This document shows, piece after piece, positions 4,860 through 50,800 of a stretch of DNA of 55,564 nt. The notes under the pieces are model-generated. The model was not told the DNA's origin. It did not search any database and saw nothing but the letters and a program-made list of their open reading frames with translations. Position 1 is the stretch's first letter. Every line of letters begins with the position of its first letter. Both the position numbers and the translations under genes were made by a program. Origin of the DNA: a virus; the IMG/VR virus record IMGVR_UViG_3300045988_018915, positions 1 through 55,564 of that record, one strand, 5' to 3'.

Positions 4860-4883
4860 AGTGAACTTTAGTGAACTTTAGTG
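4860..4883. repeat. tandem 10-bp repeat AGTGAACTTT x2.4 overlapping the stop codon of the 4868..5311 gene
   Basis: agtgaacttt agtgaacttt agtg read directly. Confidence 0.8.
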
Positions 4884-5311
4884 TTATCCCCGAGATATAA
4901 TGCACCGAATTTTGTTTCAAATTCTCTTAAAGCCTTTTTGCGAAGCTTCATGGCATTTCTGTATGAGCAATCCATATCAACAGAAATCACGTTCCAATCC
5001 TTGCCATCAATGTAATGCGCGGCTAGGACGATATACACATCTGTATCCTCCATACTGTCAATCTGCCCTATAATCTCCCTACGTTTTGTAACAAGTTCGT
5101 TAACAAGAACGTTGATTTCATTCTGCAGGTCTACGATTTTTGCGACCGCGCTTCCTAATTTGTCTTGATCTCCGGAAGATTGAACATCAACCTCTTTTGG
5201 GGACATCGATATGGAAGTTGCCATATCCGACAATCGCTTGATTTCCGTCAATTTATTCTTGATTGCATGGTCAGTTCTACTGATCTGTGATAAATATTCA
5301 TTGGTTGTCAT
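4868..5311 (-). CDS. coiled-coil protein with a sigma-70 region-4-like HTH
   Basis: 147 aa. C-terminal VYIVLAAHYIDGKDWNVISVDMDCSYRNAMKLRKKALREFE resembles region 4 / ArpU-RinA-type late regulators. Confidence 0.45.
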   Translation of the reverse strand: MTTNEYLSQISRTDHAIKNKLTEIKRLSDMATSISMSPKEVDVQSSGDQDKLGSAVAKIVDLQNEINVLVNELVTKRREIIGQIDSMEDTDVYIVLAAHYIDGKDWNVISVDMDCSYRNAMKLRKKALREFETKFGALYLGDNTKVH

Positions 5312-8657: not shown

Positions 8658-8924
8658 TTACACCTCAATCAAAGTAAATTTTCTTATTGTTTTTGGAATC
8701 TCACGATGCAAAATACCATCTGTATCAAAATATGGTTCTTCGTAATGACGCGCCCATGGTTCTGGCATTGACAATCTTATGTAATCATCTAACGACAATT
8801 TCTGCGCCGCTGATCCTATAAGACCTAAACTATAATTTCCTGCATTTTCATATAGAGTTTTGCAATAAGGGCACACCTTTTTATCGGTTTCGATCGGTGC
8901 GCCACAATTCACGCAGTTTGTCAT
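8658..8924 (-). CDS. zinc-ribbon domain protein
   Basis: Start trimmed to MTNCVNCGAPIETDKKVCPYCKT. The longer ORF to 9083 would run into a tRNA-like element. Confidence 0.55.
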   Translation of the reverse strand: MTNCVNCGAPIETDKKVCPYCKTLYENAGNYSLGLIGSAAQKLSLDDYIRLSMPEPWARHYEEPYFDTDGILHREIPKTIRKFTLIEV

Positions 8925-9001
8925 ATTTCTTCCCCAATCATAGCAAAAATCGGAATTCTCGTTAGATTCCGTGTCTTTCGTGTGTAACAAATGTAATTGA
9001 A

Positions 9002-9129
9002 TTGATGTGGCGAGGATTTGAACCTCGCAGAAAAGATTTACTTCCTCATAATGTCCCTGAGAAATACTTTCTCTGTATTGCATTTTGCAATAGACATTTC
9101 ATAGCGTTTACCCATTCCGCCACACATCA
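9002..9129 (-). ncRNA. tRNA-like element with class-II (Leu-type) ends and a non-canonical expanded centre (128 nt)
   Basis: Minus strand: acceptor TGATGTG/CACATCA; TG; D-arm GCG-GAATGGGTAAA-CGC; T-arm GCGAGG-TTCAAAT-CCTCGC. The 75 nt between contain three short hairpins and no 5-bp stem with a 7-nt anticodon loop. Confidence 0.35.
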
Positions 9130-9148
9130 ACGCCCTATTTTGGGCAAG

Positions 9149-9233
9149 CGCAGTGTGTAGGACTCGAACCTACAAGGCGAATAATCGCCCGACCGGATAG
9201 CAACCGGATCCAATTCCATTATGGGAACACTGC
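9149..9233 (-). tRNA. tRNA-Ser (anticodon GCU), class II
   Basis: Acceptor GCAGTGT/ACACTGC; anticodon loop TTGCTAT; variable arm GGCGA-TTA-TCGCC; T-arm GTAGG-TTCGAGT-CCTAC. Confidence 0.8.
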
Positions 9234-9402
9234 AAAATTGACAAGATGCACTCGATCAAAGGCTACCAAACGCATAGGGATATTTTCGAGTGTCCTGTCT
9301 GAACTGCTTTTGTTGTACTTCCTACTCACAGCTTGTTTGTTGTGCGTTTCTTTTTATAACCACTCGCATACTCCGCTAAAGAATACGCAAGACCCCCTGT
9401 CG

Positions 9403-9474
9403 TTGGGATTGCAGGAATCGAACCCGCGACAACCCGGATATAAGCCGTGTCTTCTTCCACTGAATTAAATCCCA
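9403..9474 (-). tRNA. tRNA-Ile (anticodon UAU)
   Basis: Acceptor TGGGATT/AATCCCA; anticodon arm CACGG-CTTATAT-CCGGG with one A-G mismatch; T-arm GCGGG-TTCGATT-CCTGC. Confidence 0.6.
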
Positions 9475-9480
9475 ATACAG

Positions 9481-9551
9481 TGATCGGTACGAGATTTGAA
9501 CTCGTGTTACCACCGTGAAAGGGTGGTGTCTTACCGCTCGACTAACCGATC
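9481..9551 (-). tRNA. tRNA-Glu (anticodon UUC)
   Basis: Acceptor GATCGGT/ACCGATC; anticodon arm CCACC-CTTTCAC-GGTGG; T-arm ACGAG-TTCAAAT-CTCGT. Confidence 0.85.
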
Positions 9552-9671
9552 AAAACGCTACTCGCGTCCGAATAACCTAGGATAATCTCTCAAACCGGTT
9601 GTGAGGACTAAACGGACGCTTTCGCTCGTCGGAACGGGAGGATTCGAACCTTCTCTTGCAAGCGCGCTCCC

Positions 9672-9757
9672 AACAGTCATAAAAAGGAATTGAACCTGGA
9701 CAGCATTTCTGCTGGATAGCTTAGCAAGCTACTGGAATACCATTATCCCATATCTGC
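9672..9757 (-). pseudogene. decayed tRNA-Ser(GCU)-like paralogue
   Basis: 5' part GCAGATA-TG-GGAT..TTCC, anticodon arm GTAGC-TTGCTAA-GCTAT and variable arm CAGCA-GAA-TGCTG parallel the 9149..9233 tRNA. The T-stem (CCAGG/CCTTT) and the 3' acceptor do not pair. Confidence 0.35.
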
Positions 9758-9843
9758 AAATAATTTATTGGCAGGACTTAGCAGCGCATTTTCTGTACCG
9801 CCCATTTAATCAAGCCTTGTCGCCTACTTGAACCAATAATTAG

Positions 9844-9915
9844 CTGGGATAGTGGGGATCGAACCCACGACATTCTGATTAACAGTCAGACGTTCTACCT
9901 CTGAACTATATCCCA
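9844..9915 (-). tRNA. tRNA-Asn (anticodon GUU)
   Basis: Acceptor TGGGATA/TATCCCA; anticodon arm TCTGA-CTGTTAA-TCAGA; T-arm GTGGG-TTCGATC-CCCAC. Confidence 0.85.
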
Positions 9916-10143
9916 ATAACCGCCATCAGACGGTTAGCAATAATGTTTTTCGTGCCATGCGTTGCACTATCCTGTTTTGTTTTAACGATGATTCAGCAGG
10001 AATACCCATCGTTGTTACTACTTAACGAAGTCTTAATGCTTCCATTTCGAGGTCTTGATGCCTCTGCGCCACATTATAATTGCCCGTGGTATCATACAGC
10101 CAAAACATAGACCATCTGCAAGCAAACAGCATAATTTGACCGA

Positions 10144-10395
10144 GTAGGTGGGTGAGGATTTGCACCTCACATAGTGTACAATAGGCGTGTGCCGACGCCT
10201 CGTTTTACCCTTCGTGCAAGTCTATGGGATTGCCTTTCAAACATTTCCGTATCCATTGGCATAATGGGTAACATTGCTTTTGCAACCATTTAAGGGAGAC
10301 AATTCACGCTATCTCGCTTGCATATATCGTTACGCAGTCTCACCGAACGAAGTCTCGTACACCTGATTAGCGTCTACCTATTCCGCCACCACCTA
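10144..10395 (-). ncRNA. tRNA-Leu-like termini separated by a roughly 190-nt structured insert (252 nt in total)
   Basis: Acceptor TAGGTGG/CCACCTA; TG; D-arm GCG-GAATAGGTAGA-CGC at the 5' end; T-arm GTGAGG-TGCAAAT-CCTCAC at the 3' end. Interior helices: GTGTAC/GTACAC, TTACCC/GGGTAA, TTGC-AAAA-GCAA, AGGCGT/ACGCCT. Confidence 0.35.
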
Positions 10396-10579
10396 ATTTC
10401 ATGGCTCATGCACCGTGGGATAGATGCATGATAGAATACCACCGGACGGTCTCGCACCGTCCTTAACAGAATCGTCCTAGTGGCGAAAGGAGGAACCCAA
10501 ATGCTTGAATCACTCAACCAAGGGTTCAAGTACATATGAAAAACATACGTGGTCACATGAAACGTCAGCATGTAACCAA

Positions 10580-10650
10580 TTAGGCTACCGGGATTCGAAC
10601 CCGGAATGCAGGAATCAAAATCCTGTGCCTTACCGCTTGGCAATAGCCCA
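10580..10650 (-). tRNA. tRNA-Gln (anticodon UUG)
   Basis: U1-A72 acceptor TGGGCTA/TAGCCTA; D-arm GCC-AAGCGGTAA-GGC; anticodon arm CAGGA-TTTTGAT-TCCTG; T-arm CCGGG-TTCGAAT-CCCGG. Very close to the bacterial tRNA-Gln layout. Confidence 0.85.
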
Positions 10651-10727
10651 TCATTTCCGTCCGCAAACACTCTTCACTTCCTAACGCAGATTCTCATATC
10701 GGACAAAGCAATGCTTGCGGACTTAAG

Positions 10728-10892
10728 TTATACCGGATGTTCGGATTTATCGGATTGATGCTCTGCGTCGCTGCTCAATCCAATTAGATCTCCGGTATAA
10801 CCCGTTTTGTTTTCCTTTTCTTTTATTCTTTCAACCGCAACAATAATACGCGGATAAAAGCAAATCTCAAATATCGGATCATAAACAAACAT
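10728..10892 (-). CDS. hypothetical mini-protein (54 aa)
   Basis: My own translation MFVYDPIFEICFYPRIIVAVERIKEKENKTGYTGDL.... ATG lies 10 nt after GGAG and right after the upstream stop. Confidence 0.3.
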   Translation of the reverse strand: MFVYDPIFEICFYPRIIVAVERIKEKENKTGYTGDLIGLSSDAEHQSDKSEHPV

Positions 10893-10898
10893 ATTCAA

Positions 10899-11057
10899 TC
10901 AGCTCCAGATCATAAAAGCGTTGATGGCGGTAAACAAAGCAAGCGCGAATGAAACATTATGCGTTCCGTCCTTGCTTTTAACGCTTTCAACTCCAAGCCA
11001 TAAAAACAAAGCGATTGCTAATGCATCAAGTGTTGTGATTACTGTTTTCAAAATCAT
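10899..11057 (-). CDS. small two-helix membrane protein (52 aa)
   Basis: GGAGGTATAGAT-ATG. Translation MILKTVITTLDALAIALFLWLGVESVKSKDGTHNVSFALALFTAINAFMIWS. Confidence 0.5.
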   Translation of the reverse strand: MILKTVITTLDALAIALFLWLGVESVKSKDGTHNVSFALALFTAINAFMIWS

Positions 11058-47853: not shown

Positions 47854-50800
47854 CTAAAAAACATAGACATTGTCTCCGGTTCGGTTGTAATGTTCTCTAC
47901 CATAATCCCTTGCGGCTTTTCCTATGTCGTTTGTAGTAATTCCGAAATTTTTCTGTAAAATAGCTTGTAATAACTGATTTTGCTGTCGTAATAAGGAAAC
48001 CTCTTGCGCAGATGTTGAATTTATGGCATCTTTGATTCCGGTAATCTCTTGACCTCCGGCAACTGCTGGTTTTCCTCCGACCGTTCCCATAAGCTCTGGA
48101 ATACCGTTTTCTCCAACTTTTGCAATGCTGTATCTGTCCATAAAGCCGCCTGTTGCATAAGCCTTTACTCTAGGAAGTTTTACTTCCTTAACAAGATCAA
48201 CTCCGCTCCAATCAACTCCGGCTACTTTAGCGGCAATCGACACAACGTTATTAAATCCGCTTAGCACTTTATTTACTCCGCGTATCAGTGAGTTTATTGC
48301 GCTTTCAATTCTTGCAATTACACTGTTCATCGCACCGGAAACACCACTTTTCACGCTATTCCATAATTTGCTGAATATTTCAGTTACACTTTCTTTCATC
48401 TTCGAGAAAGCGTTTTTTATCGGGGTGGTTACATGTTCTTTAAACCAACTAGAAACACTATTCCACACACCGGTTATCGCTGTCTTTGCCGCGCTAAATG
48501 CTTTCTGAATAGACTCTTTTGCTGAACTAAAAGCATTCTTAATAGGTGTTGTAACATGTTCCTTAAACCAACCGGAAACCACCACCCATACCGATTTCAC
48601 AGTTGACCACAAAACCTTGAATGCGGTTGATACTGCCAATTTGAATAATTCAAAATTTTTCTTTATTGGCTCTATTACCTTTGATTTAAACCAATCAGAA
48701 ACAACAATCCATACAGCCTTAACAATAATCCATAGCCCCTTAAATATTTGTGATACTCTTGTATAGAATCCTTTGAAAAATCCAACTATCGGTTCTATTA
48801 CGGTTTTATTAAACCACCCCGACACTCCTTTCCATACGTTGGATATGCTTTTCCACAAATTACCGAAAAATCCGGATACTTTCGTATACATTCCTTTAAA
48901 GAATCCGACCACAGGGGTAATTACGTTTGTATTGAACCACTCACCAACTCCGGAAAATGTATCGACAACAGTTTTCCAATTATCTTTTAACAACACTGCA
49001 ACTGTTGCAACCGCCGCAGTAACAGCCGCCACGATCGCTGCCGGTGCTGCCGCTACCCCTAAAATAACCGCTCCGACCGCCGTAATCGTAACTCCGACAA
49101 GCATAAGTGCTTCATTAAGCCAACTGAATCCGTTCTTTAACATGGTTACAAAGTTTGATATTGCAGTAAATGCGCCAATCGCAACGGAGCCTATTCCGGT
49201 TATTGCTTTTGCAACAGGGCTTATAAATGCAAGCGCACCTTCTGCCGCTTTACTTCCAAACAAAGCCTTAAATCCTGCTGAAATGGTTGTTCCAACCGTC
49301 GCAAATGCCGTCGTTATTTTTCCGGATAATGCGGTAGACAAAGCTACGCCAATTCCTTGGTTTGCCGCAATTCCAACACCTAATTTAGATGCAATAGAAG
49401 ACGCTATTGCTTTTGAAATGGAAGTTCCGATTATATCAAGTGCGGTTTTTGCAAGATGCAATCCAAGGATTTTTTTGATTGTCAGTGCACCGACAATAAT
49501 TGCAACCGTCTTTACATCTAAGTTACTTAAAAACTCCTTTGCTCCGTTCCAAACATCCTTCCAAGAAATTTTACTTAACGCTGTCGTAACTGCATCAAAC
49601 GCGCCTTGCGCCCATGCATTAAGCGTTTGAGCCAATAATGCAAAATCAAAGTTTTGGAAAAACTTGTTGATTCCGTCCGCTATCGAATTTCCGAATTGTT
49701 TCCAATTAAACGTTGTGCCGAATGAATCCAATCCGTGAAGCACCGTGTTTAATGAATTTGCAATCAGTTTTCCGGTTTCTCCGAAAAGCGTTGTACCTTT
49801 CTGACCCTCAAATAGTCCATTAAGGAATTTTGCAAGTCCACTACCAAAGCCGGACGCTTTGGCATATACCTCATCCCACTTGATTCCTTTCATTGCGTTT
49901 ATCAGCGCACCGGATATTGACTTTCCAAGCCCTTCAAGGTCTTTTATCTTGCTTTTATAGTCCTTAAAAATGGTGTCAGCCGCAACAAGTTTTCCGCTTG
50001 AACCGCTTGCGCCACCACCGCCGCCGGATGAACCACTACCGCTACCGGACGAACCTTTATCTTTATTCGAACTGATTACTTTTAATTCATCAAATGCTCT
50101 GGTTGATTTCTTTGCTTCTTTTGCGGCTTTCTTTGTACCATTTGCCGCGTCATTTGCCGCATCCGCTACATTTCCATAGCTATCAGCTAAATCGTCCGTA
50201 ATGCCTACGTCACTTGCTTCATACTTCCATCCGAAGATAGAGCCTAGAGCATTTGTGACCATCTCTGCAAATGAAATCACTTTTTGCAGAACTGCATTGA
50301 GTGTTCTTACAAATGGCTTAAATGCATTAATGAGTGCGCCACCCATGATTCCGGCTAACTGTTGGAATGATTGTTTTAGGATTGTTACTTGGTTATGCCA
50401 CGTATCTGCGGTTCTGGCGAAGTCCCCCTGTGCCGCTGCCGTGTTAGCCATAACATATTGGTATCTAAGCATAGCTTTTTCGGCTTGCGTCATTGTCTTA
50501 AAATTAGCTTCTATTCCTTGCGTAAGTGCCCATTCCTTAAGTGTTGCTTGGGTTAAATCTAAACCGTAAGTACGCAGAGGTCGGGTCTGTCCGGTAAAGA
50601 TAGCCGTCAAGTCCTCAGCAACCGCCGATTGCTCCACATCATAGAATGATGCCATGTCTGCGGTCAACTTTGTGAGTTGTACAGACATATCTGCCATCTT
50701 GCCTTGTGGGAATCCCATAGCAACTCCCATAGCTTGAAATCGGCTTGCAAACTGTTTTACAGATAACTCAGACATACCAAATTTCTGAATTGAATTCGCG

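Follow-up and report, generated by a model that had tools for sequence, protein, structure and literature searches.

Phage RNAs with a tRNA-Leu-like top half and exchangeable inserts: a putative modular family

Element A is a 251-nucleotide (nt) feature on the minus strand (10395..10145) of a phage tRNA array. It is located in the window, i.e., the whole 55,564-nt stretch analysed here (IMG/VR record IMGVR_UViG_3300045988_018915, positions 1 to 55,564), which represents a siphovirus-like temperate phage with identified large terminase, portal, major head protein and integrase. Element A combines the upper half of a tRNA-Leu-like molecule, here named the chassis, with a structured insert of about 190 nt, here named cargo A, and both parts are under selection. 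The same chassis surrounds unrelated inserts in many other phages, and sequence comparison indicates that these RNAs with a tRNA-Leu-like top half and a swappable insert form a large modular family. With moderate confidence, element A is interpreted as a non-decoding chimeric RNA on a tRNA-Leu-derived chassis, which would be excised and stabilised by the tRNA machinery and would carry its cargo as the effector.

Anatomy and covariation of element A

The tRNA-like ends of element A were initially noticed in the sequence alone, and this description proved accurate. They form a perfect 7-base-pair (bp) acceptor stem (TAGGTGG/CCACCTA), U8-G9 (10388-10387), a class II D arm of the tRNA-Leu type (GCG-GAATAGGTAGA-CGC, 10386-10370) and a T arm (GTGAGG-TGCAAAT-CCTCAC, 10170-10152), the latter with a 6-bp stem and a loop reading UGC instead of UUC. 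The helix-rich insert, an independently folding domain, replaces the anticodon and variable arms, and a 5-bp stem with a 7-nt anticodon loop was detected neither in the sequence of element A nor by ARAGORN in its default and intron modes. Element A agrees with canonical tRNA-Leu in the 7-bp acceptor, U8 and the D arm with G18 and G19, but departs from it in the T arm, which has a 6-bp stem and the loop UGCAAAU rather than a 5-bp stem, UUC and a 12-bp stack. The discriminator is C73 (position 10144), and base pair 3-70 is G-C. The tRNA-core bases U8, A14, A15/U48, G18, G19/C56, U54/A58 and G53/C61 are retained and may fold into an L-shaped elbow.

Homologues of cargo A were collected with a 24-nt core pattern, which retrieved 18 IMG/VR loci, and with a scan of GTDB, which yielded one copy in a Lachnospiraceae metagenome-assembled genome (MAG; locus L220). 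Including the window, the set comprises 20 loci and 11 unique sequences, ten of which were aligned. Two core segments of approximately 50 nt each are invariant in the 20 loci, while the acceptor stem and the peripheral helices diverge. The RNAalifold consensus contains 71 pairs, 16 of them with compensatory changes. Pair counting used a 72-pair version, to which one D-stem pair had been added by hand, and over these 72 pairs 98.3% of the cells in the ten homologues are paired. Changes on both sides occur in 16 pairs, compared with 0-3 in every slid control, and the observed covariation score was reached by none of 500 shuffles. The compensatory pairs are distributed over the acceptor stem (five), the closing helix GGUGUACGA/UUGUACACU (three), the AUUGUC/GGCAAU helix (five), a GNRA-type hairpin (one), the hairpin at 10249-10272 (one) and the T stem (one). 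Together with the invariant core, they support a multi-helix fold of cargo A. They also contradict the outcome of a decayed pseudogene, for which the sequence-only reading had proposed a check on homologues. The single-sequence fold energy of element A is modestly below that of shuffles (z = -2.1).

The individual helices proposed from the single sequence fared differently in the alignment. GTGTAC/GTACAC holds as a 9-bp closing helix, and the hairpin TTGC-AAAA-GCAA is likewise retained, its loop reading GAAA, GAAU or GUAA in the homologues. AGGCGT/ACGCCT recurs in the predicted fold but lacks covariation support, since the helix is invariant and covariation is therefore silent on it. No support was obtained for TTACCC/GGGTAA, as the partner indicated by covariation for its variable base (alignment column 126) is column 147 and not the invariant GGGTAA. 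ATGG-AT/ATCCCAT is absent from the consensus, in which GGCAAT pairs with ATTGTC instead.

No antisense match of more than 14 nt to cargo A was found elsewhere in the window, and no relative of cargo A was found among GenBank phages. By eye, GUACGAGA resembled a sarcin-ricin loop, AGACU the R element of group I introns and two GGA motifs CsrA sites, but each likeness was discarded as non-conserved or incompatible with the topology.

The chassis family and its cargos

Terminase relatives of the phage number at least 597 in IMG/VR, and 80 of these loci were fetched. They were searched structurally for a D arm and a 6-bp T stem enclosed by the two complementary strands of a 7-bp acceptor. In these relatives, the same chassis encloses wholly different inserts, with total lengths of 113-251 nt. 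In addition, the 3' half of the chassis (ATGTGNGGTKCAAATCCNCNCC) was scanned against IMG/VR (at least 119 stretches) and GTDB genomes (63 stretches). Genuine GTDB members occur in Lachnospiraceae, Oscillospiraceae, Acutalibacteraceae, Enterococcus, Lactobacillaceae, Psychrobacillus, Alicyclobacillus, Peptococcaceae and Saccharibacteria MAGs, and some of the GTDB stretches are chance matches within coding sequence. The chassis is present in at least 138 fetched loci. Its carriers include prophages of Clostridia and cultured phages of Bacillus, Leuconostoc and Enterococcus, and in the tRNA arrays of Firmicutes phages it is combined with dozens of unrelated cargos.

A BLAST search of GenBank phages with the chassis 3' half matched 85 records. 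The member in Bacillus phage phi3T sits at 50188-50328 on the minus strand of KY030782.1, downstream of a yonN-like gene, and in SPbeta-like phages the match is restricted to the chassis 3' half. The Herelleviridae phages Goe3 and SBSphiJ contain a member within a tRNA cluster, between tRNA-Asn and tRNA-Met, while the member of Leuconostoc phages lies close to the left genome end. Enterococcus phages account for 23 of the 85 records, these being matches by BLAST alone, and no relative of the 175-nt Enterococcus member was found among GenBank phages. In every inspected GenBank record, an RNA annotation is absent, and small coding sequences (CDSs) labelled 'hypothetical protein' overlap some members. 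Two CDSs overlapping the chassis 3' part are probably spurious, namely phi3T_57 (KY030782.1 50068-50220, locus L276) and Goe3_c06000 (KY368640.1 31533-31673, locus L278). The phi3T cargo is approximately 80% identical in the unrelated Herelleviridae phages Goe3, SBSphiJ and BSP12, which implies horizontal transfer. Known phage-associated small-RNA motifs adjoin some of the arrays: int-alpA RNA (RF02996) was detected in two such loci and DUF3800-VIII RNA (RF03075) near the phi3T element (L091 3402-3472, L220 6513-6581 and L276 3760-3825).

The strict set comprises 94 unique sequences of 82-258 nt with 35 acceptor sequences, all of them complementary, complementarity being a search criterion. 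Like the covariation of cargo A, this recurrence of the chassis is decisive in placing element A beyond chance. U8 is found in 100% and G9 in 99% of the members. Across the family, the two strands of the D stem covary (GCG/CGC, GUG/CAC, GAG/CUC, CUG/CAG and ACG/CGU) and enclose the loop GAAUAGGUAGA or a near variant. YAU precedes the T stem in 95%, and the T loop reads UGCAAAU in 73% and UUCAAAU in 27%. The T stem has 6 bp in 94 of 94 members, a length that the search itself required. As discriminator, 65% of the members have A, 27% U and 6% C; U occurs at -1 in 63% and at 74 in 62%, and CCA is encoded in none. U8-A14, A15-U48, G18, G19-C56, U54-A58 and G53-C61 are retained in the family, position 55 being the exception. 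The acceptor helix does not extend beyond 7 bp, as -1 pairs with 73 in only 60% of the members, a proportion explained by the preferences for U(-1) and A73, and pairing then decays. Element A displays the sequence features that define the family, namely the acceptor, U8 G9, a D stem of 3 bp closed by a GAAUnGGUAnA loop, YAU, the 6-bp T stem, a U(G/U)CAAAU loop and the acceptor 3' strand directly after it.

The cargos fall into 51 clusters without detectable mutual similarity. Up to seven cargos occur per acceptor sequence and up to five acceptors per cargo; such mixing is expected if cargos are exchanged through recombination inside the conserved D and T arms. Compensatory pairs were also found in other cargo types, with 11 in the 155-158-nt type and 10 in the 113-nt type when chassis pairs are counted. 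Some cargos contain an internal hairpin resembling a canonical T arm (GGUUCGAAUCC type; e.g., L083 5862-6015, L016 341-509, L204, L254 and L263), so that these elements hold two T-loop modules per RNA.

Element B, located in the same array, is a second family member in the window; the 7+6 geometry (acceptor plus T stem) that had been noted for both elements, with element B placed at 9002..9129, is correct. In its cargo, two short hairpins and a variable-arm-like arm meet at a three-way junction. The fold energy of element B is clearly below that of shuffles (z = -4.6), and its relatives in L052, L056 and L069 share 92% identity with it. A call of element B as tRNA-Leu(cag) with a 37-nt intron at 31/32, made by ARAGORN at a lowered cut-off only, was rejected, as the anticodon stem has just three pairs.

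A prior description of the chassis family was found neither in Rfam 15 nor in the full-text literature, with subscription journals outside this coverage, and its absence is weak evidence of novelty.

Proposed function and competing explanations

In the favoured interpretation, element A would be co-transcribed with the adjoining tRNAs. RNase P would then cleave its 5' end and RNase Z its 3' end. These cleavages are suggested by the resemblance of the top half to a pre-tRNA, by the lack of an encoded CCA and by the frequent U at -1 and 74, the last point relying on the generally known preferences of the two enzymes. The tRNA-like ends may stabilise the excised RNA, while the absent anticodon arm, the 13-bp acceptor/T stack and G55 would bar it from decoding. 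C73 and G55 probably also bar element A from leucyl-tRNA synthetase (LeuRS). Leucylation does not require the anticodon arm but depends critically on A73 and G18-U55 (PMC2377443). With C73 and G55 in place of A73 and U55, element A is thus unlikely to be leucylated, but members combining A73 with U55, found in 65% and 27% of the family, respectively, might be charged. The cargo is proposed to be the working part, probably binding a host or phage factor, and would be an accessory component that is swapped between phages by recombination in the conserved D-arm and T-arm sequences.

Several points weigh against this interpretation. Each step of the mechanism past the anatomy is deduced, which applies to all members. 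The chassis, with its D loop GAAUAGGUAGA, YAU-G, 6-bp T stem and G55, is conserved more tightly than RNase P and RNase Z need, and this suggests a specific partner that reads the chassis. The universality of the 6-bp T stem is partly built in, because stem length was a search criterion. The A discriminator in 65% of the members means that some may be aminoacylated. Finally, no target or partner of a cargo was found, either as antisense matches in the window or as a protein gene consistently linked to chassis elements.

The main alternative is that the chassis itself is active, serving as a decoy or sponge for a reader of the tRNA-Leu elbow, D arm or acceptor (a defence nuclease, a modification enzyme or LeuRS), with the cargo being secondary. 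The near-constant chassis over very distant phages, combined with differing cargos, is in line with this idea, as is the role of phage tRNA loci in countering tRNA-cleaving defences, e.g., Septu, which cuts the variable loop of tRNA-Tyr (PMC13096335). However, the invariant core and the compensatory helices show purifying selection on each cargo type as well, and one cargo is common to unrelated Bacillus phages; a mere stuffer would not be conserved in this way. No tRNA-Leu-specific defence nuclease was linked here either. Overall, an active chassis is considered rather unlikely.

Another explanation assumes that LeuRS charges the chassis and that the leucyl-RNA acts outside decoding, as an amino-acid donor or through contacts with the ribosome and EF-Tu similar to those of transfer-messenger RNA (tmRNA). 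It draws on the tRNA-Leu D arm and the pairs U8-A14, A15-U48 and G19-C56 in the chassis, on the frequency of A73 and on the dispensable anticodon arm (PMC2377443). G55 replaces U55 in 73% of the members including element A, although G18-U55 is critical for LeuRS, and element A also has C73. In addition, both a tag open reading frame (ORF) and an ARAGORN tmRNA call are absent, the 13-bp stack is non-standard for EF-Tu, and no SmpB-like partner is encoded nearby. A role as an aminoacylated RNA is therefore quite improbable.

The sequence-only reading had offered two identities, an intron-containing tRNA or a new tRNA-mimic RNA. The former would be a tRNA-Leu gene with a self-splicing (group I or similar) or otherwise removed insert, giving a functional tRNA. 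Group I introns are classically found in bacterial tRNA-Leu genes, and the strings AGACU and GGGUAAA in the core of cargo A resemble group I cores by eye. In 35 of the 94 cargos, (U)AAGR follows the first helix strand, compared with about seven expected, while element A has GAGAC there. This enrichment resembles the 5' side of the tRNA-Leu anticodon loop and suggests that the family arose from phage tRNA-Leu, possibly via expansion of the anticodon loop.

The searches for known RNAs argue against an intron. Rfam 15 was scanned with the window at the gathering threshold, with 8700-11000 at E<=10 and with 21 related loci at E<=1 to 5. At gathering thresholds, the window returned canonical tRNAs only (four of five), and no canonical tRNA or known intron class covers element A. 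At E<=10, no match in 8700-11000, including tRNA (RF00005), Intron_gpI, tmRNA, Y RNA and ribozymes, overlaps element A or B, and no family member in the 22 sources scanned was matched. ARAGORN in default, intron and tmRNA modes made no call at 10145-10395 and called none of the 94 members as tRNA or tmRNA. Its intron mode reported five of the 94, with four contradictory anticodon identities and varying intron positions, and a relaxed threshold reported 35, scattered over 14 identities. Deletion of any internal segment of element A restores neither an anticodon arm nor a variable arm, so that no exon junction rebuilds them. The covariation-supported helices of cargo A are all nested, without P3/P7 order, and a covarying pseudoknot was not seen by eye; nestedness alone does not exclude a P3/P7 arrangement, because RNAalifold cannot predict pseudoknots. 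The helix at the P7-like place pairs upstream, not downstream, of the P8-like hairpin. The cargos range down to 30 nt, a size too small for a ribozyme. Furthermore, canonical tRNA-Leu genes share some arrays with chassis elements. An intron is accordingly very improbable. Since a consistent anticodon arm is missing throughout the family, the intron is rejected and the tRNA mimic is upheld, refined to a member of a modular family with a tRNA-Leu-derived chassis and an exchangeable cargo.

That element A is a tRNA pseudogene in decay, or the scar of a recombination at the DNA level without RNA function, is hardly credible: a degenerate tRNA-Ser-like sequence in the same array and the lack of element A in a near-identical phage would fit it, but the stems are perfect, compensatory changes affect acceptor, D, T and cargo helices, and the elements are conserved across Clostridia, Bacillus, Leuconostoc and Enterococcus phages.

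Returning to the non-decoding chimeric RNA, a wider and more tentative proposal is that Firmicutes phages possess a natural modular tRNA scaffold, i.e., a non-decoding, tRNA-Leu-derived chassis that hijacks host processing and carries RNA effectors swapped by recombination. The cargos could be aptamers, decoys or ribozymes acting in host takeover or counter-defence, and the cargo of element A would be among the largest and most conserved of them, with a new functional fold of 190 nt. If this is true, a whole class of phage genes has been overlooked, because tRNA finders reject the members and gene callers skip them or overlay spurious ORFs. The family is a source of dozens of new structured RNA folds for which evidence of selection is already at hand, and it may also partly explain phage tRNA arrays beyond codon supply, a question open since T4 RNAC and RNAD. 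Since members occur in the tractable Bacillus subtilis phages phi3T, SPbeta-like, Goe3 and SBSphiJ, direct tests are feasible.

Array context and comparison with known systems

The coordinates of element A, its parts and the array are listed in Table 1.

Table 1. Element A, its predicted substructures and the tRNA array that contains it (positions in the window).
Feature	Position	Strand	Remark
Element A, whole: tRNA-Leu-like chassis and ~190-nt cargo	10145..10395	-	discriminator C at 10144
Acceptor 5' strand UAGGUGG	10389..10395	-	partner 10145-10151; 5/7 pairs compensatory among cargo-A homologues
U8, G9 and class II D arm GCG-GAAUAGGUAGA-CGC	10370..10388	-	same kind of D arm as canonical phage tRNA-Leu in related arrays
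Linker UAAUCA (6 nt), D arm to closing helix	10364..10369	-	invariant in 10 homologues
Closing helix, 5' strand GGUGUACGA, in place of anticodon stem	10355..10363	-	partner 10173-10181; every cell paired, 3 pairs compensatory
Cargo core, multi-helix	10182..10354	-	RNAalifold consensus and pair counts
Cargo helix CUUCG/CGAAG	10348-10352 with 10210-10214	-	invariant, predicted only
Cargo hairpin	10319-10336	-	invariant, predicted only
Cargo helix GCGAG/CUUGC	10313-10317 with 10216-10220	-	invariant, predicted only
Cargo helix GUG/CAU	10305-10307 with 10224-10226	-	RNAalifold consensus
Long-range cargo helix AUUGUC/GGCAAU	10298-10303 with 10229-10234	-	5 compensatory pairs
GNRA-type cargo hairpin	10274-10285	-	1 compensatory pair
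Cargo hairpin	10249-10272	-	1 compensatory pair
Cargo hairpin AGGCGU/ACGCCU	10183-10200	-	invariant, predicted only
Closing helix, 3' strand UUGUACACU	10173..10181	-	RNAalifold and covariation
AU and T arm, 6-bp stem GUGAGG/CCUCAC, loop UGCAAAU	10152..10172	-	1 compensatory T-stem pair
Acceptor 3' strand CCACCUA	10145..10151	-	complementary to 10389-10395
Canonical tRNA array Gln, Asn, Glu, Ile, Ser	9148..10650	-	same strand as element A
tRNA-Gln	10580-10650	-	in array
tRNA-Asn	9843-9915	-	in array
tRNA-Glu	9480-9551	-	in array
tRNA-Ile	9402-9474	-	in array
tRNA-Ser	9148-9233	-	in array
Element B, second family member, 127 nt	9003..9129	-	other 75-nt cargo; 18 nt downstream of tRNA-Ser

The association with tRNA genes is general: a canonical tRNA lies within the fetched locus for 116 of 143 instances, and the nearest tRNA is on the same strand in all 116, with a median gap of 132 nt. 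The chassis elements are accessory, a family member being carried by 42 of the 80 terminase relatives. The 99% terminase-identical phage IMGVR_UViG_3300045988_011856 (L001 4545-4659) lacks the 470-bp block 9972-10440 that holds element A, and also element B, tRNA-Glu and tRNA-Ile, which marks the array as a hot spot of gain and loss. Element A is separated from tRNA-Asn by a 229-nt non-coding spacer (9916-10144, minus strand). The first 48 and last 60 nt of this spacer are conserved in many loci with other cargos and hence form the flanks of the cargo slot, while its middle is common to few loci. The predicted fold of the spacer amounts to -54.7 kcal/mol, a value given without shuffle control. 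A promoter-like site was noted at 10870-10843 (minus strand), but such sites are no more numerous than in shuffles. Among 30 neighbouring ORFs, PHROGs and Pfam revealed no RNA ligase, nuclease, CCA enzyme, aminoacyl-tRNA synthetase or reverse transcriptase.

A second conserved RNA-like motif is situated between tRNA-Gln and element A (10437-10500, minus strand) and reads CCUCCUUUC-GCCAC-UAGGACGAUU-CUGUUAAG-GACGG-UGCGAGA-CCGUC-C-GGUGG. In the fetched loci, 131 instances were found, of which 74 are unique. By eye, its outer stem shows the complementary variants GCCAC/GGUGG, CCCCA/UGGGG, ACCCUCA/UGAGGGU and CACCUAU/AUAGGU, and the inner 5-bp hairpin with its 7-nt loop varies in a complementary manner too. 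UAG...CUGUUAAG is invariant, but the instances were located by means of these strings. The motif is preceded by a pyrimidine tract similar to an anti-Shine-Dalgarno sequence, and Rfam gave no match for it. The listed 98-aa GTG ORF at 10374-10670 (minus strand), which covers tRNA-Gln and the CUGUUAAG motif and reaches into the 5' end of element A, is almost certainly no gene. The degenerate tRNA-Ser(GCU)-like sequence at 9678-9757 (minus strand) scores 26 bits with the Rfam tRNA model, which is below threshold, and is followed by a stray T-arm-like piece (GAAGGUUCGAAUCCUCC) at about 9630-9677 (minus strand); both are probably decaying tRNA genes of the array. Outside the array, a DUF1492 protein is encoded at 4868-5311 (minus strand), between the large terminase and portal genes. 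DUF1492 proteins are sigma-factor-related late-gene regulators typical of Firmicutes phages, for which this position is unusual.

In tmRNA, a tRNA-like domain consisting of acceptor and T arm is split by a large functional insert, which is connected through a helix replacing the anticodon stem, and element A shares this design. tmRNA differs in its Ala identity pair G3-U70, reduced D region, tag ORF, pseudoknots and SmpB, whereas element A has G-C at 3-70, a full tRNA-Leu D arm, a 6-bp T stem and no ORF, and the family inserts are many and unrelated. An identity as tmRNA was rejected on the basis of the 3-70 pair, the missing tag ORF and the empty results of ARAGORN -m and the Rfam tmRNA families.

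Element A resembles canonical class II tRNA-Leu in its D arm (3-bp stem and GAAUnGGUAGA loop), U8, G9, A15-U48 and 7-bp acceptor, and differs in lacking anticodon and variable arms and in its 6-bp T stem, G55 and C73. In tRNA-Leu(UAA) genes with a group I intron, roughly 200 nt are inserted into the anticodon region of the tRNA-Leu body. Unlike these, element A has no group I signature and no junction that rebuilds the anticodon loop, and its helices are nested. The comparison with tRNA-Sec, which had been drawn from the 13-bp count of the acceptor/T stack, is correct in this count only. tRNA-Sec has an 8+5 or 9+4 stack, a long D stem (6 bp) and a UCA anticodon, and it was rejected as an identity since element A has a 7+6 stack, a 3-bp D stem and no anticodon. 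YrlA and bacterial Y RNAs are non-coding RNAs with a module similar to the tRNA elbow and occur in some phages. The ends of YrlA lie in the Ro-binding stem, on the 'anticodon' side, while those of element A form an acceptor stem; this identity was discarded also because Rfam gave no match.

The nearest phage precedents are T4 RNAC (species 1) and RNAD, small stable RNAs of a phage tRNA cluster with a function that is still unknown (PMC3014915, PMC9697503). The 139-nt RNAC terminates in a T arm (CCGGG-UUCGAAU-CCCGG) and shows imperfect acceptor-like pairing around a long insert. In contrast to element A, it lacks a tRNA-Leu D arm, its T stem has 5 bp and its acceptor contains two U-U mismatches, and no sequence similarity between the two was seen by eye. 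T4 RNAC is not known to have a family with exchangeable cargos. A similar design is used in the engineered tRNA scaffold reportedly introduced by Ponchon and Dardel in 2007, in which the anticodon arm is replaced by an RNA of interest that is trimmed and stabilised by the tRNA enzymes of the cell. That scaffold is artificial, and the chassis family would be its natural counterpart, representing the same design in the form of diversified phage genes.

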